DNA of 64,000 nucleotides from Nitrospirota bacterium (GTDB lineage Bacteria; Nitrospirota; Thermodesulfovibrionia; Thermodesulfovibrionales; UBA9159). The stretch lies in the NCBI GenBank assembly GCA_963699545.1, contig CAVOUE010000004.1, forward strand, positions 32,001 through 96,000, read 5' to 3'. The position numbers were made by a program, and so were the translations under genes. The notes beneath the pieces are model-generated. The model searched no databases. It saw only the letters and a program-made list of their open reading frames with translations, and had not been told where the DNA came from. This document shows positions 1,780 through 19,799 of this stretch, piece by piece (the first letter of the stretch is position 1; each line of letters opens with the position of its first letter).

Positions 1780-2637
1780 TTAAGTTTCATCAAGGAGCCG
1801 TTCATATTGCTCCGGACTCCTATACCCTAATGCCGAGTGTCTCCTCTGACGATTATAGAACACTTCCACGTACTCAAATATGCTGAGCCTTGCCTCCAGC
1901 CTTGAACGGTACTTCTCACCGTGGACCAATTCCGTTTTGAGGGTACCGAAGAACGACTCGGCATAGGCATTATCATAGCAATTGCCACTTCTGCTCATGC
2001 TCGGGGTAATGTCGTATTCTCTGAGAAGCTCCTGATATGCATAGCTCGCGTACTGTCTGCCTCGATCAGAATGGTGGATGAGCCCCTCGGAAGGGGTTTG
2101 CCTGCTTGCTGCCGCCTTCAGCGCATCAGAGGCGAGTTCCTGAGAGAGCTTGGCGCTCATGGACAGCCCGATAATCCTCCTGCTTCTGACATTCATCACT
2201 GCCGCCACATACAGCCAGCCCTCGGAAGTGGGAACAAATGTTATATCTGATGCCCATACCCCCTCTGTCTGTCTCTTTTCAATCAGCAGGTTTGCCGCCA
2301 GGGCATAATCATGCCGTGAATCGGTAGTCCGCCTGAATCTCCTCTTTTTCACTTCCCCACATATTGCATGGTCCTTCATGATCCTGGCTACCCGGTTCTT
2401 CCCGCATTTGACACCCTGTTCATTGAGCTCAACGGTGATCCGGGGACTACCGTACAGCTTTCTGCTTTGAGTGTGGACCTCCCGTATGTGCCCCAGCAGC
2501 TCACGATTGTCTTTTACCCTCGTGCTGACCGGACGACTGCGCCACGCATAATACCCGCTCCTGGATACCTTCAACACCTCACACATGCTTCTCACCTTGT
2601 ACTTCTCCCGGTGCTCTTCCATAAACCCATACTTCAT
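1780..2637 (-). CDS. IS3 transposase OrfB (DDE integrase core)
   Basis: WASDITF, HHSDRGRQY, DNAYAESFF, YNRQRRHSALGY motifs. Confidence 0.95.
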   Translation of the reverse strand: MKYGFMEEHREKYKVRSMCEVLKVSRSGYYAWRSRPVSTRVKDNRELLGHIREVHTQSRKLYGSPRITVELNEQGVKCGKNRVARIMKDHAICGEVKKRRFRRTTDSRHDYALAANLLIEKRQTEGVWASDITFVPTSEGWLYVAAVMNVRSRRIIGLSMSAKLSQELASDALKAAASRQTPSEGLIHHSDRGRQYASYAYQELLREYDITPSMSRSGNCYDNAYAESFFGTLKTELVHGEKYRSRLEARLSIFEYVEVFYNRQRRHSALGYRSPEQYERLLDET

Positions 2638-3843: not shown

Positions 3844-4835
3844 TCATACGACATAATAATTGATGATACCGACCGCCGCGAGGGTGAGGAGAAATTTCAG
3901 CCATGCACCCCCGGGCTGGTGCTCCAGCCCTTCTTCAAGTCTCCTGATCCTGCCCTCAAGGTGGACGTTATGGCTGTAATCCTCAAGGGCAACGCTGAGG
4001 GTCGAGAGCTTTTTCATTTTCCCAAGGGTGAGGTCTTCTCCCCTGTAATTGAATTTCCGGAGGATCTTCGCCACGCACCGGGCCTCTGCGTCAGTGCAAC
4101 GGCCACATCGTCACATATCTTCTCTTCTTCCTGTACCATCCTTCTGAACTCCACAAGGATCACCGGATTAAAGAACATAAGCATCCGTATCAGGTATACC
4201 ACCACAAGGAGCGGACGTCTGTTCCTCTCGATATGGGCGACCTCATGGGCAATGGCCGCCTGCAGTTGCTCCCCGTCCATTCCCGCAACAAGCCCTGAGG
4301 ATAAATAGACCGTAGGCTCATTCCGGGTGGTGGAGAACAATAAGAGCTCATCGTCGTCGATCACCGAAATGCGGGGCCTCTCCCCGGGAAAATTCTCCAG
4401 TGCGTCATTGATAGCAGGGTGATCAATGGCCTCTTCCTCTTCGGATGAAGACCGTCTCGATTCAATGGTATGCATCAGGATCGGGACCATCTCCTGGACA
4501 AGAAAGACCAGAGTAGTGACAGAAAGCATGGCAATGAACAGCAGGTTTACAGGGATGATCCCCCATAGTTCCAGGTTCAGCCACCGGTTGATATCAAAAA
4601 GGGTCTCCAGTCTGAAGGAAACCGACCCCCTCCCCGGGTTTATGTACTGGTAGACGGGAAAGGAGACTATGGGGAAGAGCATGACGATCAGGCTGAAGCG
4701 CTGGCGTATCAGCGGATTGGTGATGTCCCATGCCTGGATGGCCCTGTCCACGATCAGGGCAGCGATGAGGGAATGGCAGAACGCCTGGGCAATGTACATG
4801 CCGACATACGAACTAAAAAAAGTTGCGATATTCAT
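3844..4835 (-). CDS. M56/M48 (BlaR1-like) membrane zinc metallopeptidase, frameshifted near 4075
   Basis: HEVAH motif, FFNP...EEKICDD; C-terminus continues in ORF 3844..4074. Confidence 0.8.
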
Positions 4836-5057
4836 TCCCTATATACCTGTATACCAAAAAAAGCTTCTTTATGATAGCAAATTTATGCTGCCGGTCAAGA
4901 AATCTCCCGAAATAGATTAGCGGAAACCTTTTTGACCTCACAGTACTTTCGCATAGTTCTTCCCGGCATGATTGGATAAGACATTATAGAATGGACAGCT
5001 CTTGATTGCAGGAATTACAAAAAGACCTGCAAGTGTGCCTCGGAGGCCTGCAGGAGG

Positions 5058-5537
5058 TTACGCCTTTTCGGCCGCAAGAAGCATGATTTCCGCGCCGATC
5101 TGCATGTCATCAACGATTCCGAAATAGTGCTTTCGGATAAAACCTTTCTTATCGATGAGGATCAAGGTGGGTGTTCCCCGGCACCGATAATCCCTCATCG
5201 TTAACGGGACAGCTGAACCGGAGGGATCGGGAGCATCAACACCGACAGGAAAGGTATACTTGAACTCGTACAGGAATGACTTTAACGCCGAAGGCGTCAT
5301 CGCTTCATGATGTTCAAATACGGTATGCACACCGATGACGATAACGCCGGCCTTCGAAAATAAATCGAAGATCCTCTGGGTCTGCGGCAACCCGTGAAGA
5401 ACGCAGGCCGGGCAGAGCATCTGGAACGTATGCACAACGATCACCTTGCCCCGGCAGTCCTCGATCTTTATTTCCCTCTCCGTATTTAACCAGAGAGTGG
5501 TTTTCAGTTCCGGGGCGGGGTCATTGTCCTTGTGCAT
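5058..5537 (-). CDS. Redoxin / TlpA-AhpC-like thioredoxin-fold protein
   Basis: FQMLCPAC, HTVFEHH, GTPTLILIDKKG motifs. Confidence 0.85.
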   Translation of the reverse strand: MHKDNDPAPELKTTLWLNTEREIKIEDCRGKVIVVHTFQMLCPACVLHGLPQTQRIFDLFSKAGVIVIGVHTVFEHHEAMTPSALKSFLYEFKYTFPVGVDAPDPSGSAVPLTMRDYRCRGTPTLILIDKKGFIRKHYFGIVDDMQIGAEIMLLAAEKA

Positions 5538-5715
5538 ATCTACCGCCATTTGGGGAGCAACCGGCACGCACCTTCGATGTCGCCATCACTATATCGTTGA
5601 ACACATGACCACGGGGAATTCCCGCCAGAATGAGAAGATCCGCTTCCGTAATGATCCCGATGACGTGGCCCTCACCGTCCACAGCCGGCATTCCGCTTAT
5701 CTTGTACCGTATCAA
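5521..5715 (-). pseudogene. Single CBS-domain fragment
   Basis: ISGMPAVDGEGHVIGIITEADLL matches one CBS repeat; truncated. Confidence 0.55.
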
Positions 5716-5745
5716 TGATCTTCCGCCTTGTGAATGTCCCTCTCT

Positions 5746-6246
5746 TTATTTGCGATAAGAGCTGAAAACATAATCCGTCTTTTTCTGCGGTTCGTGGCAG
5801 TTGAAGCACGCGCCCTTTGGGTCAGTCACCGCTCTTTCCCTGGTGTCAGCCTTGAATCCTTCGAACCCCCATCCGCCCGTCTGCGCAAATCTTTTGGAAT
5901 CTTTCTCCATCACGCCGATGATTTTCCTGGGGCCTTCAACAACGGCGCTATTCTCGCTCTTTCCTTCCAGCAGGTCAAAAACCAGGACCGCTCCATCGGG
6001 ATAGGGTTTCCCTCTTTTCATAGCTTCCAGGGCCTTTTTGTTGGCATAGATGTGGTGAATTCCCCCGAAAGACTCAAAGAGAGGATGACCCTGTTGAATC
6101 ACCATTGACTTCACATGGGTCCACTGCCGATACCCTTCGGGATACTTAACGGATTGTTTGCTCCCCCCTCCGGAAAATACCGGTACAGCAAGGAAGAGAC
6201 CGAGGATGAAAACGATGGTGGCCGTAATGATGGGTTGGTTCTTCAT
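5746..6246 (-). CDS. Cytochrome P460 family protein, c'-beta type
   Basis: Signal peptide, YPEGYRQW, HHIYAN, PDGAVLVFD, GGWGF, C-terminal CFNCH. Confidence 0.88.
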   Translation of the reverse strand: MKNQPIITATIVFILGLFLAVPVFSGGGSKQSVKYPEGYRQWTHVKSMVIQQGHPLFESFGGIHHIYANKKALEAMKRGKPYPDGAVLVFDLLEGKSENSAVVEGPRKIIGVMEKDSKRFAQTGGWGFEGFKADTRERAVTDPKGACFNCHEPQKKTDYVFSSYRK

Positions 6247-6369
6247 AACGCCTTTACCTCCTTTTGTGGAGTTCCGGCCCATGCCGCTCTCCTTTTCATT
6301 GTTGAATGGCTCTCACTCTGCCCAGGGACTAACATTCTACGGGTTTCGGCAATCGTCCTTTCCGCACCT

Positions 6370-7425
6370 TTACCAACCAAACCTGAGATCCGATCTCGCG
6401 AATTCATTCCCGTAGATGTAACCGTCCACATCCTTCAGATTGACGATAATGCCGGCCTTTCTGAAGAACCTGTCCCAGCCGATCCTGTTTATCCATTCTT
6501 TTATTCTTTCGTCAGGTTCGGCACTCCTTTTCCACGCATCCATTATCTGGATAACCGCCTTTACGGCTTCCTCCCACTTTGGAGGGTTATTGGGCAAGTA
6601 GGGGATGACGATCCTTCCGAGGTCAGGACCGCTGCCGGTATTGGATGCCTTGCCTCCAACCGACACGGCAAAGCCATCGAGTTTCGGATCGCCCGTCAGG
6701 ATCGCTTCGCATGCCATGGTGCAAGCCCCGCAGTGTATGCATTTTTCAGCGCTTATCTGGATACCGATTTCACCTTTCGGCTTTATCGCACCTGTAGGGC
6801 AACAGGCGACAACCGTGGGACGTTCGCACAACCTGAACTGATCCTCAAGCACTATAGGCAAATCCCTGTGGACTCCTATTATTCCTATGTCCGCCATCAA
6901 CGCCTCTTCGATATTCGCACAGCCGCCTATGTTTATCTTCAACCATGAAGGCAGTCTCTGGTTTCTGAATTCATCGATCAGGGCATCGCCAAGGGCCTTT
7001 GCGATCCCCGGTGAGTCAGTTGCAGGAAGATTACAGTGGATCCAGCTCGGACACGCCATGATATTGTGCACGGAGTTCTTTGTCCCTCCCACCGGAAACC
7101 CTTCGGCCTCGACCTTTTCGATGAGTTCCTCTATCTTTTGAGGGTTCGCATCCACAAACTCAAAGGAGTTCCTCAAAGTGATCCTGAAGTATCCTCCTGA
7201 GTATTCATCGGCGAGGTCGCAGAGGTCCAGCATCGAGGCGACACTGATCCTCGACGGCGGCATTGCGGTCCTGACCGTATAGCAGACATCCCCTGACTCG
7301 GCGATATGCTTTATAACACCGGGTCTCGGTATCTCATGCCGGTCCCACTTCCCGTAGTTCTTTACTATTACAGGCGGGACATTCTCCTCTATCCTGGGTA
7401 CCCCGATTCCACCGATCTTACTCAT
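6370..7425 (-). CDS. dsrB: Divergent dissimilatory sulfite reductase beta subunit-like protein
   Basis: NYGKWDRHE..PGVIKH, YTVR, CPSWIHC..PATD, ferredoxin CIHCGAC, PNNPPKW, ERI.EWINRIGW.RFF. Confidence 0.88.
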   Translation of the reverse strand: MSKIGGIGVPRIEENVPPVIVKNYGKWDRHEIPRPGVIKHIAESGDVCYTVRTAMPPSRISVASMLDLCDLADEYSGGYFRITLRNSFEFVDANPQKIEELIEKVEAEGFPVGGTKNSVHNIMACPSWIHCNLPATDSPGIAKALGDALIDEFRNQRLPSWLKINIGGCANIEEALMADIGIIGVHRDLPIVLEDQFRLCERPTVVACCPTGAIKPKGEIGIQISAEKCIHCGACTMACEAILTGDPKLDGFAVSVGGKASNTGSGPDLGRIVIPYLPNNPPKWEEAVKAVIQIMDAWKRSAEPDERIKEWINRIGWDRFFRKAGIIVNLKDVDGYIYGNEFARSDLRFGW

Positions 7426-8647
7426 TGTGACCTCCTACTTCACCCTCGTCCCAGTGATAGAAGGTGTTTCTCCTCGGTGTTGAAAAATGCATCGTCGAGA
7501 TCTCGACCTCGCACCACTGAAGGAATTTGTCAAAACCAACCCTCTGGGCCATATCCCCTATCCGTTCCTTTTTTCTTCCGTGTTCGTCATAGACATCGCA
7601 TATCTTGTTGAATGCCTTGACCAGATCCGCGTAATCGGGCGGTGTCGCCTTAATGAAGGGAAAGATGACCTTTCCTTTCATAGGTCCGAATTTCCCTTTC
7701 ATCTTGCCGCCGGCAGTTATCGCAACGCCCCTGTCATCCCCGGGTTTTATGGCAGGCACGCGGTTGATACAGTACATGCACCGTATGCATCTGTCACCGT
7801 CAATTTCGAGCTTGTCCCCGTCCCAGGGCATTGCATCGGTCGGGCAGTGATCACAGACCCAACGAATATTGCCGCCTTCTTTGACCCACTCCCTCAGCCT
7901 GTCGTTATTCACCTTCGGCAGGTCCTTGAATACGCCTACGATGCCGATGTCTCCATGGAGGAGCGCCTTGCCGCATTCGTTGGGGCAGCCCGACATCTTT
8001 GTCTTTATCTTGAAGGGAAACCTCGGGTACTGTATGTCGTCGATGTAATGGGTCGTCATGAAATGCTTGATTCCCGGGGTGTCCATTACCGCATGTTCAC
8101 AGAGTGCCGGACCCATACAGTCGGGGATGTTCCTGATCGCATCACCTGCGGAGCCTACGTCGTTGCCGACCGCATTGAGTTCGCGCGTCACGGCAGCCAT
8201 AGCATTGTCGTTCATTATCCCGCAGATCTCGATATTGTAATTCGTCGTCAGCATATGGAGGGATCCGTCACCGTGCCTGTCTGCTGTCTCGCATATCTTT
8301 CTGAAGGTTGACGTCTTGAAGAAATTTCCGGGATTGCCGAGAACCCGTATGAGGTGGGAATGACTGATGATATCAGGCCTCCTCGATTTCCTGGCGATGG
8401 CCCCGGAGCCCAGTCCGGGTACAGAGGACATTCCTCCATGTCCCCATTGGGTCAGCCTTAACCTCATGGCCTCTTCATACATCATAACAGGGTAGCGCGT
8501 TTTCTTGAGTTCCTTTGCATGGCTCGGCCACGGTCCTTTTGAGAGCTCATCCATGAGGGGTGTTTCTGTTGTTTTACCGCCCGGTTCTTCTGCGATCTTC
8601 TCCTTCGGTGCTGCATGAATGGGAGATTCCGGCATATATGCCTCCAT
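7418..8647 (-). CDS. dsrA: Divergent dissimilatory sulfite reductase alpha subunit-like protein
   Basis: TPLMDELSKGPWPS, CMGPALC (CX5C), FPFKIKTKMSGCPNEC (CX3C), CIRCMYCIN, ERIGD...R.G. Confidence 0.9.
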   Translation of the reverse strand: MEAYMPESPIHAAPKEKIAEEPGGKTTETPLMDELSKGPWPSHAKELKKTRYPVMMYEEAMRLRLTQWGHGGMSSVPGLGSGAIARKSRRPDIISHSHLIRVLGNPGNFFKTSTFRKICETADRHGDGSLHMLTTNYNIEICGIMNDNAMAAVTRELNAVGNDVGSAGDAIRNIPDCMGPALCEHAVMDTPGIKHFMTTHYIDDIQYPRFPFKIKTKMSGCPNECGKALLHGDIGIVGVFKDLPKVNNDRLREWVKEGGNIRWVCDHCPTDAMPWDGDKLEIDGDRCIRCMYCINRVPAIKPGDDRGVAITAGGKMKGKFGPMKGKVIFPFIKATPPDYADLVKAFNKICDVYDEHGRKKERIGDMAQRVGFDKFLQWCEVEISTMHFSTPRRNTFYHWDEGEVGGHNE

Positions 8648-8719: not shown

Positions 8720-8735
8720 TATGATTTAAATCATA
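8720..8735. promoter_or_regulatory. Crp/Fnr-type palindrome upstream of dsrA-like gene
   Basis: TATGA-TTTAAA-TCATA, perfect 16-bp palindrome. Confidence 0.7.
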
Positions 8736-9004: not shown

Positions 9005-10087
9005 CTATGAGTAGACACCGTATTTCTTTGCGGCCTCTACCATCCTCTTCGCATTGCGGAGGGGTGCGTTCGGCCCGAATTCGCAGCCGGTGGCGAGGAC
9101 GTACCCTCCGCCCTTCGCAAAGATTTCTATCTCGGCCTTGCATTCTTCCTCGATCTCCTCGGGGGTCCCGAGCATCGCTACCGGTCCCGGGGGCACCCAG
9201 CCGATGGTGACGATCTTGTTTCCCCACTTCGCCTTATGATCTTCCCAGCTGTCCACGTCGTCGGCGACATACGCGTGAGAGACCGCATGGGGTTTGCCCC
9301 ATTTGTCGATCATGTCGAAGTAGATCCCGTTTCCGCAGTTGTGATGGCTCACCAGCGCTCCGGCGTTCCTGATCGTATCGCATACCAGCTTGAGAGATTC
9401 TCCTTCGAACTGCTCCCACAGTTCCTTGCTCAGGATGGACTGGGAAGCGTAGAGGTTGTCATAGCAGACAGAATGGGCACCTGCCTCGACCTGGGCAAGA
9501 GCATACTCGTTAAGCACTTCGTCCATGATCTTCAGAGCGCCCATCACTTCATCGGGGTATTCGATGAGGTCCTGGAAGAAGTTCTCCGGACCGCGCATCA
9601 TGCTCAATGTTCCGAGGGAACCATAGACAAAGCCCACGATCGCATGGGTCTTGCCGATCTCTTTCGCCAGGCCGGCGGTCAGGTCTATCACGGCCTTCAT
9701 CCTCTGCGTCTTCCTTGGGTTGATCTTCTGGATCTTCTTGTAGTCCTCCTTCGGATTCTTAATAAAATTGTTGTCATAATTAGGATGCGCCGTGTCAAAC
9801 TCAGGGAAGATAACCTCGCAGCCAAAAGCCTGGGCTTCTACCGAAAGGTCGAGCAGCATTACGACGCCGTCATGTCCGATCATGTCCAGGGCGTCTACAT
9901 GTCCTTTGACCATTGCGTCGATGTTCGTCCCCTGAGACCATTCCCCGTAGGTTATGCCGGCAAGCCTGTGGCTTGCGCCGCATACAAGGGGAGCGGCAGG
10001 TACCCTGTCAGGCTCCTTGAACTGAAAGGTCGTCCCTACTCTCTCAAGACCTGTCATCTGCTCTGTCTTGGTACTTATCTGTGCCAT
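9005..10087 (-). CDS. MtaA/MtbA-like methylcobamide:thiol methyltransferase (URO-D superfamily)
   Basis: PDRVP, DLSVEAQAFG, Zn-binding HNCG and LATGCE motifs. Confidence 0.82.
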   Translation of the reverse strand: MAQISTKTEQMTGLERVGTTFQFKEPDRVPAAPLVCGASHRLAGITYGEWSQGTNIDAMVKGHVDALDMIGHDGVVMLLDLSVEAQAFGCEVIFPEFDTAHPNYDNNFIKNPKEDYKKIQKINPRKTQRMKAVIDLTAGLAKEIGKTHAIVGFVYGSLGTLSMMRGPENFFQDLIEYPDEVMGALKIMDEVLNEYALAQVEAGAHSVCYDNLYASQSILSKELWEQFEGESLKLVCDTIRNAGALVSHHNCGNGIYFDMIDKWGKPHAVSHAYVADDVDSWEDHKAKWGNKIVTIGWVPPGPVAMLGTPEEIEEECKAEIEIFAKGGGYVLATGCEFGPNAPLRNAKRMVEAAKKYGVYS

Positions 10088-10439: not shown

Positions 10440-10823
10440 TTATCTGCGGCCGACCGCCTGAGCGAGTATGTCACGATTCTCGTAGATGTTTCCTATGACC
10501 TCGCAATCGCTCTCTTTCCAGAGATTGCAGGCAAAACCGAAGTCTTCTCCGAATCCGAAGACGGAAGAGATAATGTAGTATTTCCTGTTCCGGACTCCGA
10601 AGGATGAGACATCAACGATATCTCCGACATAGATCTCGGTGTCCCATTTATCCCTCATTCCGGTATACTGTTGACTCTTTCTTTCGACGACATCGGCGTA
10701 GTCCCCGCAGTCACAGGGAGGAGGGACGAACTGGTCATCAAAAAAACCCCAGAAATGAAATTTGCCCTGGTGCCACACTCTGAATCTGATCTTCTTCCTT
10801 ATTTCACGGGTGAGCATCTTCAT
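10440..10823 (-). CDS. YopX family protein
   Basis: I.FRVW, QYTGMRDK...EIYVGDIV, EVIGNIYEN. Confidence 0.85.
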   Translation of the reverse strand: MKMLTREIRKKIRFRVWHQGKFHFWGFFDDQFVPPPCDCGDYADVVERKSQQYTGMRDKWDTEIYVGDIVDVSSFGVRNRKYYIISSVFGFGEDFGFACNLWKESDCEVIGNIYENRDILAQAVGRR

Positions 10824-10906: not shown

Positions 10907-10922
10907 TATGATACAGATCATA
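10907..10922. promoter_or_regulatory. Crp/Fnr-type palindrome between divergent yopX-like and small Cys-rich genes
   Basis: TATGA-TACAGA-TCATA. Confidence 0.65.
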
Positions 10923-11233: not shown

Positions 11234-11249
11234 TGTGACATTTATCACA
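11234..11249. promoter_or_regulatory. CRP-consensus box immediately upstream of the Crp/Fnr gene (likely autoregulation)
   Basis: TGTGA-CATTTA-TCACA. Confidence 0.8.
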
Positions 11250-11256
11250 TCTAAAA

Positions 11257-12042
11257 TTGGCAGCGATGTACTATTTTGAAAAAAAGAAGGATTGCGAGAC
11301 CCTTTCATCCATCCCTTTTTTCAGGGAGATGGGTGAAGAGATAACCTGTTTCATCCTCGAATACGCTTCACATAAATACCTTCCCAAGGGGCAATATCTC
11401 TTTATGGCCGACGAAGTCTGCACGAACCTTTACATAGTCGAGGAGGGGCTTGTAGAAATCTCTCAGTTGAGCGAAGAAGGGAAAAAGATTGTTTTGCACC
11501 ATGCTACGAGGGGCGCTTTTTTGGGAGACACGATTCTTTTTAATGTGGGCAGATATGGAGCATATGCGCATTCCCTCGAAGATTCGGAGTTGTTATCCAT
11601 AGACAAGAAGAGTTTTGAAGGGATCATTCATGCTTATCCCGAGATCGGGATAAAGATGCTCGCTGATTTTGGAGAAAGAATCGAGAGGCTGAAATCACTG
11701 GTGGCGGAAGTAGCGCTCAACGATGTCAGGAAGAGGATCGTCAGGCTGCTCGTTGAACTCATCGAAGGCGAAAAGGAGAACTGTGTCTCGCGGGCAGGAG
11801 TCGATTACAGAAACAGCGTAATTCTCAGGAATGTCCCGACCCAGGACCAGATGGCTCACAGGATAGGGACCGTGAGAGAGGTCTTATGCAAGGGGCTGCA
11901 CAAGCTCGAAAGAGACCGCGTTATCAGGGTGAAAAGAGGGCAGATTGAGATAAACGACGTGCGGCGGTTGCGGGAGATGGTCTTTGAAAACAAGGGGGAC
12001 AGGCTCTTCCCCATCATGCTTCCGGCGAAAAGGAAAGCGTAG
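11257..12042 (+). CDS. Crp/Fnr family transcriptional regulator
   Basis: cNMP-binding fold plus C-terminal HTH TQDQMAHRIGTVREVLCK. Confidence 0.93.
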   Translation: MAAMYYFEKKKDCETLSSIPFFREMGEEITCFILEYASHKYLPKGQYLFMADEVCTNLYIVEEGLVEISQLSEEGKKIVLHHATRGAFLGDTILFNVGRYGAYAHSLEDSELLSIDKKSFEGIIHAYPEIGIKMLADFGERIERLKSLVAEVALNDVRKRIVRLLVELIEGEKENCVSRAGVDYRNSVILRNVPTQDQMAHRIGTVREVLCKGLHKLERDRVIRVKRGQIEINDVRRLREMVFENKGDRLFPIMLPAKRKA

Positions 12043-13970: not shown

Positions 13971-14288
13971 TCAGCATTCAACGGGTTTCGGCAATCCGGC
14001 CAGCTTGTATGCAGTCCTGTACCCTAAGGAGGGAAAGAGTCTGTACATGTCGGCCTTCGTAAAGCCTGCTTCAATGAGAATGTCGCGGCACACGGGGGAT
14101 ACTCTGTTCCTCTCATAATGGAGCCTGATCGCTGTAATGAGCTTCCAGTGTTCACCGGTGAGCGCTCCGACGCCTTCCATCCCCGCGAGTTGCTCTGCAA
14201 CGCGCACATCCCAGGTATCAATGTCCCTGAGATACCCGTCTTCATCCAGTTCCAGTCTTTTTTCGCTGCTTTCTACGGCTGTTGTCAT
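13971..14288 (-). CDS. TusE/DsrC/DsvC family sulfur-relay protein with only the terminal Cys
   Basis: LDEDGYL...W...A, LTGEHW, LFP, AYKLAGLPKPVEC C-terminus. Confidence 0.9.
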   Translation of the reverse strand: MTTAVESSEKRLELDEDGYLRDIDTWDVRVAEQLAGMEGVGALTGEHWKLITAIRLHYERNRVSPVCRDILIEAGFTKADMYRLFPSLGYRTAYKLAGLPKPVEC

Positions 14289-14374: not shown

Positions 14375-14390
14375 TATGATATATGTCATA
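14375..14390. promoter_or_regulatory. Crp/Fnr-type palindrome upstream of dsrC-like gene
   Basis: TATGA-TATATG-TCATA. Confidence 0.7.
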
Positions 14391-14443: not shown

Positions 14444-15827
14444 ATGAAGAAACTCTGGGGAGGAAGCTTCAGGGAGAGGACATCCGGGGTCGTGGAGTCT
14501 TTCACGGAATCTATCTCCTTTGACAGGCGCCTCTGGAGATACGACATCGAGGGAAGCGTGGCCCATGCGGAGATGCTCGGCAGGCAGGGGATAATCACGA
14601 ACAGCGATTCAGACAGGATAATTCACGGACTGAAAACGCTGGCCGGCGAGATCGAGTCCGGAAAGTTCCGGTTCAGGGAAGACCTTGAAGACATCCATAT
14701 GAACATTGAGGCCGCCCTCATCAAAAAGATCGGTCCTGCCGGGAAGAAGCTTCACACGGCAAGATCCAGAAATGATCAGGTCGCCCTTGACCTCAGGCTT
14801 TACCTGAGGGACGAGACAGGGCTGATCATCTCGGCGCTCAGAGGACTTCAGGAAGCGCTCGTGGAGAGTGCAGAAAAAAATGTGGCCTGCATTATGCCCG
14901 GATACACGCATCTCCAGAGGGCACAGCCGGTGCTTCTCGCTCATCATCTCCTCGCCTATGCCGAAATGCTTGAGAGGGATAAGGGAAGGTTTCGCGATGC
15001 CCTGAAAAGGATCAATGTCCTCCCCCTGGGCGCATGCGCCCTTGCCGGTACATCATTGCCGATTGACAGGGAATATGTGGCGAAGGTCCTCGGCTTTGAC
15101 TCTGTCTCGGACAACAGTATGGATGCGGTATCGGACAGGGATTTTGCCCTTGAGTTCCTGTCTGATGCGGCGATCCTTGCGGTGCATCTGTCCAGGATGG
15201 CAGAGGAGTTGGTCCTCTGGTCCACCGAGGAGTTCTCCTTTGTGGAGCTGCCCGACTCCTTCACCACAGGATCGAGCATCATGCCCCAGAAGAAGAATCC
15301 CGACGTTGCTGAGCTTGTGCGGGGGAAGACCGGAAGGGTCTTCGGGTCGCTCATCGCCCTGTTGACGACCATGAAAGGCCTGCCTCTTGCCTATAACAGG
15401 GACATGCAGGAAGACAAGATGCCTGTCTTTGACGGAGTGGATACGGCAAAGGCGTCCCTTTCCGTCATGAGCGCCATGATCCGACATATCACATTCAACA
15501 AGGAGAGGATGGCGGAGACCCTCGTCAGGGGCCTATTCCACAGCCACTGATATAGCGGAGTATCTCGTCCGGAGGGGCATGCCTTTCCGTGAGGCCCACG
15601 AAGTGACGGGTCGCATCGTCATCCACTGCGTGAGAAAGAAAAAGAGCCTCAGCGATCTGAAGATCGGTGAATTGAAGAAATTTTCCGGATTGATAGGCCA
15701 GGATATTTATCCCCTTCTCACGGCCGAAGGGTCCGTGGCTGCGAAAAGGTCCAGGGGAGGCACTTCACCGGGTGAGGTGAAGAGGCAGATAGCAAGGCTC
15801 AAGAAGGCGATTGCAGACAAAAAGTGA
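14444..15827 (+). CDS. argH: Argininosuccinate lyase, frameshifted near 15520-15535
   Basis: [21 protein letters not shown]; continues as [18 protein letters not shown] in another frame. Confidence 0.95.
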
Positions 15828-16990: not shown

Positions 16991-17584
16991 ATGGCCTGGA
17001 TGAAAGACAAGATAATCAAAGCCTTCGAAGAAAGCATAACCGTCAAAGACAAGTTCGTTAAGGAAAACGTTGACATGATCGTGGGGGCTTCGAAGCTCAT
17101 CGCCGATGCCTTCAATGACGGCAAGAAACTCTTCCTCTTCGGCAACGGCGGAAGCGCGACGGATGCCTCGCACATTGCCGCGGAATTCGTGAACCGGTTC
17201 AAACGCGACCGGCCGGGGCTTCCCGCCATTGCCCTCAACACCGATGTGGCGGTGCTCACCTCCATCGCCAATGATTATGACTTTTCCGAGATCTTTGCGC
17301 GACAGCTCAAATCTCTGTCTGAAGAAGGGGATGTGGTCCTCGCCATTAGCACCAGCGGCAATTCAGGCAACGTGCTTAAGGCCATGGATGTGGCAAAGAG
17401 GAAAAAGCTCAGGACCATAATCTTTACAGGAGCAAAGGGGGAGAAGTTCGCTGCCAAGGCGGAGTTCGGCTTTGTCGTTCCGTCCGAGAACACCCCGAGG
17501 GTGCAGGAGACCCACATTACGTTGGGACATGTCCTCTGCCAGATGGTGGAGGAGATACTCTTTGAGACACCGAGAAAGAGGTAG
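16991..17584 (+). CDS. gmhA: Phosphoheptose isomerase
   Basis: GNGGSA, NDY, STSGNS, QETH motifs. Confidence 0.95.
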   Translation: MAWMKDKIIKAFEESITVKDKFVKENVDMIVGASKLIADAFNDGKKLFLFGNGGSATDASHIAAEFVNRFKRDRPGLPAIALNTDVAVLTSIANDYDFSEIFARQLKSLSEEGDVVLAISTSGNSGNVLKAMDVAKRKKLRTIIFTGAKGEKFAAKAEFGFVVPSENTPRVQETHITLGHVLCQMVEEILFETPRKR

Positions 17585-17620
17585 CGGGATCGTACGCGTT
17601 GACCCGGACACGGGTCGTGG

Positions 17621-18115
17621 ATGGGGAGCATGATCATCCTTGGTTTGGACCCCGGCCTGGCAAGCACCGGTTTTGGTGCCATCAGTTGTACAAGAGACTC
17701 CTCTTCCCTGCTGAAGTGCGGGTATATAAAGACCTCTCCTAAGGAACATATCTCCGACAGACTTTTCCATATCCATTCGGACATCAATCACCTGATCCGC
17801 GCCCTCCATCCTGACCTGATCGCCATAGAGAATGTATTCTCTCTCGTAAGATACCCCAAGGCCGGTATATTATTGGGAGGGGTTTTGGGTATCATATATC
17901 TGTCTGTTTTCCAGAATAATGTGTCGATGGTGGAAATTACGGCGAAAGAGGTGAAGAATGCCCTGGTGGGATATGGCGGGGCGGACAAGCGTCAGGTGAA
18001 CGAGACGATAAAGGATCTGCTGAACCTTTCTGAACTCAGGTCGTTTCACGCCTCTGATGCACTGGCGGTGGCCCTGACCGCGTTTTACCGGAACTCCGGC
18101 GGGAGGAAACGGTGA
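17621..18115 (+). CDS. ruvC: Holliday junction resolvase
   Basis: ILGLDPG, IAIE, GYGGADK, DALAVA. Confidence 0.95.
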   Translation: MGSMIILGLDPGLASTGFGAISCTRDSSSLLKCGYIKTSPKEHISDRLFHIHSDINHLIRALHPDLIAIENVFSLVRYPKAGILLGGVLGIIYLSVFQNNVSMVEITAKEVKNALVGYGGADKRQVNETIKDLLNLSELRSFHASDALAVALTAFYRNSGGRKR

Positions 18116-18732
18116 TCTCTTATCTCAAAGGGGAGCTCCGGATGAACCGCGCCCATGACGACAGGGTCACCCTCGTCGTGAACGGGATAGGCTATGATGT
18201 CCTGATCCCCGCGTTTGTGATGAAGAGGGTCAGGGCGGACAAGAAAGAGGGAGACGAGTTGGAACTCTATGTCTCATACAACCAGACAGAGCGGCAGCCG
18301 AAACCGGTCCTCGTGGGGTTTGAATCTCCCCTGGACAAAGAGTTCTTTGAGCTCTTCATCTCTGTGGAAGATATAGGGCCTTCAGCGGCGGTAAAGGCCC
18401 TGGTAAAGCCGGTAAGGGAGATCGCCCGTTCCATTGAGGGGAAGGATACCAGGGCGTTGAAGGAGTTGAAGGGCATTGGCGAGAGAAAGGCCGAAAAGAT
18501 CATCGCCACTCTCAAGGGGAAGGTGGCGAAGTATGCGCTGATGCCTGAGATCGCAGCGCCGGTCGAGATCGTGGAGGACTTCAGAAAGGAAGTGGAAGAC
18601 GTCCTGATAAGTCAGCTGGGGCATAAGCTCCTGGAGGCCCGGCAGTTGATCGAGGCTGCCATGAAGCGGAATCCCCGCATCGGGTCATCGGAAGAGTTGT
18701 TCGAGGAAGTCTATCGGGGGGAGAGGCAGTGA
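18112..18732 (+). CDS. ruvA: Holliday junction branch migration protein
   Basis: MISYLKG, VNGIGY, HhH motifs; between ruvC and ruvB. Confidence 0.93.
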
Positions 18733-19799
18733 TCTACGAAGAAGAGAACAATATCCCTGATGTCCTCCCCGACATCTTGAAGGATAAGAGCCCTCTCGAT
18801 GAAGAGAACAACCTGAACCTGAGGCCGAAAAGGCTTTTCGAGTATATCGGTCAGGAAAAGATCGTGGAAACGCTGAAGATTGCCATTGAAGCGGCCTTGC
18901 AGAGGAAGGAGCCGTTGGACCATGTTCTGTTCAACGGGCCGCCGGGGCTGGGGAAAACAACCCTGGCTCACATCATCGCCAGCGAGATGGGTACCAAGAT
19001 CATCACGTCGTCAGGCCCCGCGCTCGAAAAGGGCGGCGACCTGATGGGCATCCTGACCCATATTGAAAAAGGGGATGTCTTTTTCATCGATGAGATACAC
19101 AGGATACCGAAGGTGGTGGAGGAATTCCTCTATCCCGCGATGGAAGACTTTGCCGTGGATTTCATATTCGACAAGGGCGTCCATGCGCGGACGCATCGTT
19201 ACCGGCTTGAGCCCTTTACTCTTATCGGCGCCACCACAAGGGCGGGTCTCCTTTCTTCTCCTTTGAGGGAACGGTTCGGTATCACGCGGGATCTGGACTT
19301 CTACAATGAAAATGATCTGGTCCGGATCGTGAGACGCTCATCCGAGATCCTGGAAGTAACCACTGAAGAGGAGGGCGCATACGAGATAGCGAGGAGGGCG
19401 CGGGGGACACCGAGGGTCGCAAACAGGCTGTTGAAGCGCGTCAGGGATTATGCCCAGGTGAGGGCAGAGGGAAAGATTACGAAGGAAGTGGCGATGGAGG
19501 CCTTGACGCTGGAAGGGATCGATGAACACGGCCTGGGGGAGACGGACCGGAAACTGCTCAAGACAGTCATTCTGAATTACAAAGGGGGACCCGTCGGCAT
19601 CGAAGCGATTGCCTCGACCCTCCAGGTCGAGTCGGACGTCCTGCTGGATGTGGTCGAGCCGTATCTGCTGAAGTCAGGCTTTATCATCAGGACATCGCAG
19701 GGGAGAAAGGCCTCTGAAAAGGCCTACGCCCACCTGAATCTCTCTCATAAGGGTGAGCCGGGACTCTTTGACGATACCAAACGCAAGAGAAGTTCATAG
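18729..19799 (+). CDS. ruvB: Holliday junction DNA helicase
   Basis: [23 protein letters not shown]. Confidence 0.97.

Follow-up and report, generated by a model that had tools for sequence, protein, structure and literature searches.

A divergent DsrAB-type gene pair in a Nitrospirota genome: conserved replacement of a catalytic-cluster cysteine in DsrB, with a DsrC-like gene and a candidate regulon of its own

DsrAB serves as the marker enzyme for dissimilatory sulfur cycling, and finding dsrAB in a metagenome is routinely taken to mean sulfite or sulfate reduction. The stretch of DNA analysed here, referred to as the window (64,000 nucleotides of contig CAVOUE010000004.1 from a Nitrospirota bacterium), encodes a divergent DsrAB-type pair, dsrA2 and dsrB2, in which the DsrB-like subunit has lost one of the Cys residues of the catalytic cluster site. 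The two genes overlap by 8 nt, and both products contain NIR_SIR and NIR_SIR_ferr domains (Pfam). In HMMER searches, DsrB2 aligns with A. fulgidus DsrB (3mm5_B, E = 9e-93) and DsrA2 with 3mm5_A (E = 2e-69). DsrB2 scores above the NCBIfam equivalog cut-off for dsrB (TIGR02066: 384.7 bits against 341.5) and DsrA2 below that for dsrA (TIGR02064: 316.7 bits against 392.85); NCBI labels the DsrA2 proteins of the clade described below as 'hypothetical protein' and the beta subunit as sulfite reductase. An earlier note on this DNA, made from the sequence alone, had proposed a comparison with DsrAB crystal structures, and an AlphaFold model of DsrB2 (56-row alignment, pLDDT = 87.5) superposes on four solved DsrB chains with TM-scores of 0.87–0.89 (3mmc_B 0.89; 2v4j_B 0.87). 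The inserted ferredoxin domain is marked by Fer4 matches at residues 222–241 (Pfam). As that note had also read, DsrA2 retains the CX5C and CX3C cluster motifs (CMGPALC and CPNEC), and its basic residues sit in HLIRV, AIRNIPDC and FKIKTK. Both the gene architecture, that of a heterodimer, and the fold are those of DsrAB.

In what follows, the last Cys of the DsrB cluster motif is taken to be the siroheme-bridging ligand, as in SiRHP and Dsr structures. According to the available text of PMC10229431, the catalytic siroheme-coupled cluster is held by DsrB through a CXnCCX3C motif, the DsrA subunit holds an inactive, structural site, and a bridging Cys is described in Fsr; the accessible part of PMC3448663 states the coupled siroheme-cluster motif for every Dsr-like protein. 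When DsrB2 is aligned by HMMER with 3mm5_B and 2v4j_B, 'nimaCpswihCn' lies over 'nivhtqgwihCh' and 'kiniggCanieealma' over 'rislaCCanmCgavha', with GGCANIEE set against 'accanmcg' or 'accinmcg' in the solved chains. Thus Cys125 occupies the Thr position of canonical DsrB, Cys131 and Cys169 are kept, and the first Cys of the canonical 'CC' is Gly. The Glu173 codon (GAA, 6907–6909) stands where canonical DsrB has the last Cys, and Glu174 (GAG) where it has Gly. The alignment bears out both motif differences that the earlier note had pointed to (CPSWIHC for TQGW.HC and GGCANIE for ACC.NMC), together with its GAA-encoded Glu at the bridging place; its range for GGCANIE, 6907–6921, covers C-A-N-I-E only, and the two Gly residues lie at 6922–6927.

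Two ways around the missing Cys were considered and rejected. A compensating Cys within DsrB2 was not found: Cys48 also occurs in 44 sequences outside the clade, and there is no clade-specific extra Cys. An exchange of roles, in which the DsrA2-bound siroheme site would be the catalytic one, is disfavoured because the pocket that DsrB2 itself provides (R52, H120, W161, K163) is less basic than in other DsrB proteins, position 161 being Trp in 35 of 38 clade members and Lys in 75 of 96 others.

The substitution is not peculiar to this genome. A homologue search over 5.8 billion proteins listed 120 matches; in the alignment of these with the query, 33 of the 121 sequences form a clade at 57–90% identity, and C-P-x-W-x-H-C and C-[AST]-N-[IV]-E-E are present in all 33. 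Among 134 full-length DsrB sequences, a set that includes eight added genomic loci, the fourth Cys is missing in 38 of 38 clade members and Cys-Gly is present in 96 of 96 others, a loss far beyond chance. These two columns are the only ones in DsrB that combine a residue fixed in the clade with a different residue conserved in at least 80% of the rest. Comparison of the window with seven loci gave nonsynonymous divergence (dN) of 0.10–0.24 with saturated synonymous divergence (dS); the ratio could be computed in two of the seven pairs (0.039 and 0.055), and the Ile and Glu codons of the motif vary synonymously among loci. On the DsrA2 side, R101, R172, K213, K215, K217, C177, C183, C221 and C225 are kept in 54 of 54 clade sequences. 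From this comparison, it is clear that dsrA2B2 is not decaying and that purifying selection has maintained the Cys-to-Glu change; the conservation check suggested by the earlier note found neither close homologues that keep the Cys nor a copy in decay.

The host genome is a metagenome-assembled genome (MAG) of 13 contigs (3.04 Mb, 87% complete, 5% contamination). A canonical operon lies on its contig C3, with dsrA (530 bits), dsrB (474 bits), a dsrN-type amidase, a dsrC with both Cys, dsrM, dsrK, dsrO and dsrP, and an open reading frame (ORF) between dsrK and dsrO at the place expected for dsrJ. Since this operon is present in the same genome, dsrA2B2 is a paralogue, as had been surmised from the sequence. 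Canonical dsrB was also found in six of eight other genomes that carry the variant, and the remaining two are small, fragmentary MAGs. Among 401 Nitrospirota genomes sampled, 201 have a DsrB and five, this one included and from four families, have a DsrB2 scoring at least 710 bits; in those five, a second DsrB match, the canonical one, scores about 355–372 bits and no scores fall between the two ranges. Further hosts of the clade are labelled as Desulfobacterota-type and Hydrothermarchaeota MAGs. This rare and patchy distribution suggests an accessory module spread by horizontal transfer.

The position of the clade was examined in a paralogue-rooted DsrB tree of 65 rows, made by a quick IQ-TREE calculation and without named basal type I or Moorella copy-2 sequences. 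A representative protein library, in which the best DsrB match was 42% identical, was not usable for this purpose. The DsrB2 clade is monophyletic and falls outside a 27-row group of Thermoplasmatota, Hydrothermarchaeota and bacterial DsrB (support 97 for each in the quick tree); at the base of the tree it forms a polytomy with Anaerolineae and Planctomycetes sequences and those of their relatives. A tree that forced the clade together with canonical bacterial DsrB, a group named after the tree had been seen, was rejected (log-likelihood difference 157; approximately unbiased test, p = 4e-48). The clade thus lies outside the archaeal and bacterial DsrB, consistent with the basal position that had been proposed, rather than within ordinary reductive DsrAB.

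At other loci the usual gene order is a divergent CRP/FNR-family regulator, dsrA2, dsrB2, a DsrC-like gene (dsrC2) and a CBS-pair gene. With L011 and L104 (95% identical) counted as one, 14 loci offer enough downstream sequence, and dsrC2 directly follows dsrB2 in 10 of them. Where it does not, dsrB2 is accompanied by hemerythrin/RIC-like and AF_0155-like genes (L103), DUF2249 (L011) or an Rrf2 regulator (L010). Within the window, dsrC2 is found 5.3 kb away from dsrA2B2. Its product matches TIGR03342 (75.2 bits, cut-off 53.5). DsrC2 carries the AGLPKP arm and ends in ...A-Y-K-L-A-G-L-P-K-P-P-E-C, also read as ...AGLPKPVEC, with the terminal Cys (CysA) kept. The CysB position, inspected in 10 DsrC2 sequences, is Tyr in eight; of the other two, one has Cys and the other is broken. 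DsrC2 is only 35% identical to the canonical DsrC of the genome, which has both Cys; a two-Cys DsrC and the dsrMKOP genes occur in this genome only in the C3 operon. As DsrC2 lacks CysB, the CysA-S-CysB trisulfide of the canonical cycle is impossible. An internal Cys (SP-L-C-RDIL) is present in every DsrC2 (window, L005–L009, L059–L069) and absent from the canonical DsrC of the genome; it might replace CysB functionally.

The earlier note was right that no dsrD, dsrN, dsrL or dsrMK adjoins dsrA2B2 in the window, and it overlooked the dsrC-like gene at 13971–14288. Across the loci examined, dsrA2B2 is never adjacent to dsrMK, dsrN or dsrD. This setting bears on the simplest alternative, that the pair is an ordinary second sulfite reductase isoenzyme whose cluster is completed by another ligand with its chemistry unchanged. 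Apart from the two columns, DsrB2 does keep the residues conserved throughout DsrB and scores above the equivalog cut-off, and the substrate pocket of DsrA2 is intact. Against this stand the bridging Cys, invariant in all 96 other DsrB sequences and, in the available text of PMC3448663, part of a motif universal in Dsr-like proteins; the lack of any extra Cys specific to the clade; a DsrC without CysB; a separate regulon (described below); and the separation from dsrMK, dsrN and dsrD. An isoenzyme of this kind seems distinctly improbable.

The features of the window are collected in Table 1.

Table 1. Features of the dsrA2B2 locus and its surroundings (positions in the window)
Feature	Position	Strand	Remarks
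AhpC/TSA-redoxin family gene	5058..5567	-	downstream of P460; both on one contig in run X1
CBS-pair gene remnant	5584..5730	-	49 codons, matching L005 protein residues 79-127 at 73% identity
Cytochrome P460 family gene	5746..6282	-	CFNCH haem motif; at the usual place of dsrC2; local insertion
dsrB2, DsrB-like subunit	6370..7425	-	351 aa; lacks one of the four siroheme-coupled cluster Cys
C-A-N-I-E-E	6904..6921	-	Cys169, Glu173 (GAA) at the bridging-Cys place, Glu174 (GAG); HMMER alignment
CPSWIHC (CX5C)	7033..7053	-	ancestral form; Cys125, Cys131; T-x5-C in canonical bacterial DsrB; HMMER alignment
dsrA2, DsrA-like subunit	7418..8647	-	409 aa; CX5C...CX3C, R101, R172, K213, K215, K217, ferredoxin-insert Cys
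Candidate operator	8720..8735	.	palindromic, CRP/FNR-type, TATGATTTAAATCATA; 73 nt upstream of dsrA2
URO-D family gene	9005..10087	-	best matches are MtaA/CmuA methyltransferase models, below cut-offs; upstream of dsrA2
Candidate operator, second copy	10907..10922	.	84 nt upstream of YopX-like ORF
Candidate operator copy	11234..11249	.	7 nt before the regulator start codon
CRP/FNR-family regulator	11257..12042	+	cNMP-binding domain and HTH_Crp_2; orthologue divergently adjacent to dsrA2 in L006 and L007
dsrC2, DsrC/TusE-family	13971..14288	-	105 aa; C-terminus ...AYKLAGLPKPVEC; CysA present, CysB = Tyr; displaced in the window
Candidate operator copy	14375..14390	.	87 nt upstream of dsrC2; common to divergent argH (14444-15550)

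The arrangement in the window departs from the usual order. Directly behind dsrB2 lies a cytochrome P460 family gene (PF16694, 131.5 bits, with CFNCH present), which together with the redoxin gene occupies the usual place of dsrC2; a Lys cross-link separates true P460 from cytochrome c'-beta. The CBS-pair gene, which normally follows dsrC2, survives here as a remnant; its paralogue at C10:86813–88033 is intact, is accompanied by a gene for an HPP membrane protein and has the same operator. The P460, redoxin and URO-D genes were rejected as conserved partners of dsrA2B2 because they accompany it in none of 16 other loci. The genome has three places where a URO-D (MtaA/CmuA-like) gene adjoins redox genes of the prismane family or of Dsr-like type: in the window (9005–10087, minus strand), on C9 upstream of hcp (4328–6001) and at C3:827541–828128. 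An insertion sequence (IS)-type transposase with an rve core is present in three copies with 99–100% identical protein (window 1780–2637, minus strand; C4:23511–24365; C5:471421–472275), which fits a rearrangement of the dsrA2B2 locus. The gene series SIS-ruvC-ruvA-ruvB (window 16991–19799, plus strand) recurs in unchanged order behind the Dsr2 module of L009; this marks the ancestral flank, and the module in the window has therefore been inverted and broken up. At another locus (L008:2601–4738), a small c-type cytochrome gene (CIGCH) comes after dsrC2, and the opposite strand encodes an NrfD-CBS fusion and a 4Fe-4S dicluster protein, which might give the module an electron connection to the membrane.

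Such a disturbed locus raises the question of whether the genes are a decaying pseudogene pair or an assembly artefact. The rearrangement, the CBS remnant, the displaced dsrC2, the three IS copies and the contamination estimate of the MAG would all suit this explanation. Sequencing runs X1–X4 contain only contigs of relatives, about 90–97% alike, none of which spans the whole stretch. No contig bridges 6354–6369: those from X1 and X3 become unlike the window from 6369, and the X1 contig with redoxin and P460 does so 16 nt past 6354. The exact junction between P460 and dsrB2 is therefore without confirmation from an independent assembly. On the other side, the CBS remnant beyond P460 places the junction inside the ancestral operon, both reading frames are intact, dN/dS is about 0.05 or less, and all 38 clade sequences, which come from many independent assemblies, have the same substitution. 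For the genes themselves decay or artefact is already refuted, and overall it may be put aside with hardly any hesitation.

The regulator gene contains a cNMP-binding domain (PF00027, 68.5 bits) and a Crp-type helix-turn-helix (PF13545, 43.4 bits), and its recognition helix carries an Arg-Glu pair (REV), which the available text of PMC1274295 links to TGTGA-type sites. In 9 of 12 loci, a palindrome with the core TGAY-N4-RTCA precedes dsrA2 by 40–90 nt, mostly as TATGAT-N4-ATCATA or TGTGAC-N4-GTCATA. The strict 16-mer matches four times in the window (0.05 expected) and 12 times in the genome, where the reversed pattern matched once and 20 block shuffles averaged 2.25 matches; four other host genomes gave 6, 6, 10 and 10 matches, with 0, 0, 1 and 0 for the control. 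Judging by the copy before the regulator gene, autoregulation is possible. Between the regulator and the URO-D-like gene lies a YopX-like ORF (10440–10823, minus strand; Pfam, 40.6 bits), either a member of the regulon or phage debris.

Within the genome, sites precede dsrA2, the regulator, dsrC2, the YopX-like / MtaA-like genes and several further groups: an AF_0155-like Fe-S protein with DUF2249, the CBS-pair gene with its HPP membrane protein, a 586-aa prismane/CODH-family protein, a FixO/NorC-like cytochrome c, a NapH-like polyferredoxin, and a 142-aa protein whose homologue in G384 (L117) matches COX1 (Pfam). One further site is near msrA. In other genomes, sites precede dsrC2 (G384), CBS-HPP (G310), hemerythrin (G344), NapH-like, COX2-like and Fer4_11 genes. 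This content suggests control by an oxidant or by N-oxides. The identification of the regulator as HcpR proper was not supported, hcp having no operator. Beside the intact hcp lie pieces of a second hybrid-cluster-protein gene (C9:2410–3319, plus strand, L109), one of them with a TGA, which looks like a broken copy.

With this regulon in mind, the Dsr scaffold could have been recruited to N-oxide chemistry, as a detoxifying reductase of nitrite, hydroxylamine or nitric oxide (NO), substrates that the earlier note had put forward. The evidence in favour is circumstantial and comes from regulon members and neighbours with an N-oxide or oxidant flavour. These are the HPP-family membrane protein, reportedly the subject of a nitrite-transport paper by Maeda in 2014; the prismane/CODH-family protein and the FixO/NorC-like cytochrome c; DUF2249, hemerythrin or RIC-like proteins nearby (L103, G344); the Rrf2 regulator in L010; COX1- and COX2-like genes beside operator sites; and the P460 gene inserted behind dsrB2. 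However, P460 is missing in 16 of 16 other loci, hcp lacks an operator, and nitrogen chemistry would have no use for the DsrC/TusE sulfur carrier that is the regular partner (10 of 14 loci). The substitution itself would also go unexplained, for siroheme nitrite reductases are not known to lack the bridging Cys. This possibility is considered unlikely. The regular presence of a DsrC/TusE-type partner argues that sulfur chemistry is still involved.

Some of the account is nearly certain: the fold and heterodimer layout of DsrAB, a DsrA2 with its four cluster Cys and with the basic residues that line the catalytic siroheme in solved enzymes, and a DsrB2 with three cluster Cys and two invariant Glu at the place of the bridging one. 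The data also show a paralogous DsrAB clade under selection, with a CysB-less DsrC, a regulator and a predicted operator of its own. The fuller explanation, somewhat favoured here, is that dsrA2B2 encodes a functional accessory DsrAB-type siroheme protein with a predicted rewired site, its own DsrC-like carrier and regulator, and a role in sulfur handling independent of DsrMK. In this model, a deep-branching and horizontally spread clade would live beside the canonical respiratory DsrAB. The DsrB2 cluster is predicted from its sequence to be a three-Cys [4Fe-4S] cluster whose fourth iron may be ligated by Glu173 or left open, with the siroheme either carboxylate-bridged or uncoupled from it. 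With the siroheme bridging so changed, redox tuning and chemistry should change as well, and the enzyme's mode of action is probably unlike that of any sulfite reductase studied so far. Synteny and the shared operator point to DsrC2 as its carrier; with a C-terminal Cys and no CysB, DsrC2 would take no part in a DsrC-trisulfide/DsrMK cycle and could carry a persulfide at most. The whole module would be switched by the dedicated CRP/FNR-type regulator, which would also control the CBS-HPP, DUF2249/AF_0155, prismane, cytochrome c and NapH-like genes.

A different conclusion could be drawn from the same site, namely that the protein is a non-catalytic siroheme- or sulfur-binding scaffold, sensor or carrier in which both siroheme sites are structural. 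The first site is without its bridging Cys, and the second, lined by DsrB2 residues, is less basic (Trp161 in 35 of 38, compared with Lys in 75 of 96); a sensory role would be compatible with the CBS-pair partner and the dedicated regulator. In the accessible part of PMC10229431, canonical DsrA illustrates that a siroheme site can turn structural. Nevertheless, strict conservation extends to the sulfite-binding Arg and Lys residues of DsrA2 (54 of 54), to the two ferredoxin inserts and to the Glu pair, as for a working redox site, and the DsrC-like partner keeps its reactive C-terminal Cys. A purely structural role is thus regarded as quite improbable.

Several points weigh against the favoured explanation of a rewired accessory enzyme. 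MAFFT and HMMER differ on a one-residue gap, and the exact equivalent of the bridging Cys may accordingly be Ile172 or Glu173. The operator pattern was derived from the same loci, and two or three of the 12 sites in the genome may be chance matches; none precedes hcp, the classic nitrosative-stress gene, in this genome. An adjacent dsrC2 is missing in 4 of 14 loci. The search of sequencing runs found no RNA run with the locus, and the best DNA runs contained at most 0.17 of the sampled words. Finally, the basal type II DsrAB proteins, which are the nearest relatives, are themselves uncharacterised.

As to function, a condition-specific enzyme for DsrMK-independent handling of sulfite or sulfane sulfur, rather than a second respiratory sulfite reductase, is a tentative proposal that may well prove wrong. 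More speculative, and on balance doubtful, is a specific version of it in which a [4Fe-4S] cluster held by three Cys and one Glu, as in IspG, accompanies a carboxylate-bridged or uncoupled siroheme, within an oxidant-, nitrite- or NO-induced DsrMK-independent module that would either form sulfite out of a DsrC2-bound persulfide or produce such a persulfide by reducing sulfite. If so, sulfate reducers of the Thermodesulfovibrionia type could, for example, oxidise sulfur or dispose of sulfite when N-oxides or oxygen block the canonical pathway, and the cofactor arrangement would be one not known in any siroheme enzyme. The thiolate bridge from siroheme to cluster is generally regarded as the defining feature of siroheme sulfite and nitrite reductases. 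If a conserved clade has given it up, the Dsr scaffold would accommodate another type of active site, and the clade provides a natural experiment on the role of the bridging cysteine. Genes of the clade should not be counted as ordinary sulfite reductases, and the compact regulon with its predicted operator makes the physiology directly testable.

Solved canonical DsrAB structures are available from A. fulgidus (3MM5–3MMC), D. vulgaris (2V4J), D. gigas (3OR1) and D. norvegicum (2XSJ). The present proteins share with them the two-gene alpha/beta layout, the fold, the ferredoxin inserts, the CX5C...CX3C motifs and Arg/Lys pocket of DsrA, and a DsrC-family partner. They differ in that DsrB2 is at most 42% identical to the solved chains, has CX5C for T-x5-C and G-C for C-C, and replaces the bridging Cys-Gly by Ile/Val-Glu with a one-residue deletion; in addition, DsrA2 falls below the TIGR02064 cut-off, dsrD, dsrN and dsrMKJOP are not linked, and DsrC2 is without CysB. 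A precedent for Glu ligation is offered by IspG (GcpE), whose [4Fe-4S] domain is related in fold to sulfite and nitrite reductases and whose cluster is held by three Cys and one Glu with a reactive unique iron. A weak Foldseek match connects the DsrB2 model with IspG (3noy_D: rank 45, E = 0.018, 90 columns, 27% identity). The precedent extends to the ligation only, since IspG has no siroheme, is a different enzyme and spaces its ligands differently. DsrC2 resembles the TusE/DsrC family in its TIGR03342 match and its AGLPKP arm ending in CysA, and the Tyr at its CysB position is presumably as in TusE-type proteins.

Among described DsrAB groups, the nearest relatives (about 46–53% identity) are the 'basal type II' proteins, which the available text of PMC12948486 reports from Verrucomicrobiota, Planctomycetota, Chloroflexota, Methylomirabilota and Hydrothermarchaeum profundi. 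These have in common with the clade the ancestral CX5C, the single Cys before the x3 spacer and the deep branching; in contrast, they keep C-x-N-N-C-G-E and all four Cys, and many of their DsrA subunits are about 470–480 aa long. The same text names no Nitrospirota among the basal types and checks motifs in DsrA only; the clade therefore appears not to have been included there. Nor is the clade described in the accessible portions of PMC10504309, PMC10591310, PMC6018805, PMC11033732, PMC5812927, PMC12948486 or the preprint 10.1101/2021.12.28.474277. Full-text literature searches gave no description of a DsrB without the bridging Cys or of this Nitrospirota-centred paralogue, although survey supplements might list such genes.

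The regulator, too, has known counterparts. It differs from HcpR in that hcp has no site here, and from FNR in its three conserved N-terminal Cys, the spacing of which departs from the classical FNR pattern. Its cNMP-binding domain and Crp-type helix-turn-helix, the REV helix and a palindrome of the TGTGA-N6-TCACA / TTGAT-N4-ATCAA type are features shared with HcpR, Dnr and NnrR, going by the available text of PMC1274295. HcpR regulons, according to that text, often include ferredoxin-, hemerythrin- and cytochrome c-like genes, and the regulon described here resembles them in this respect.

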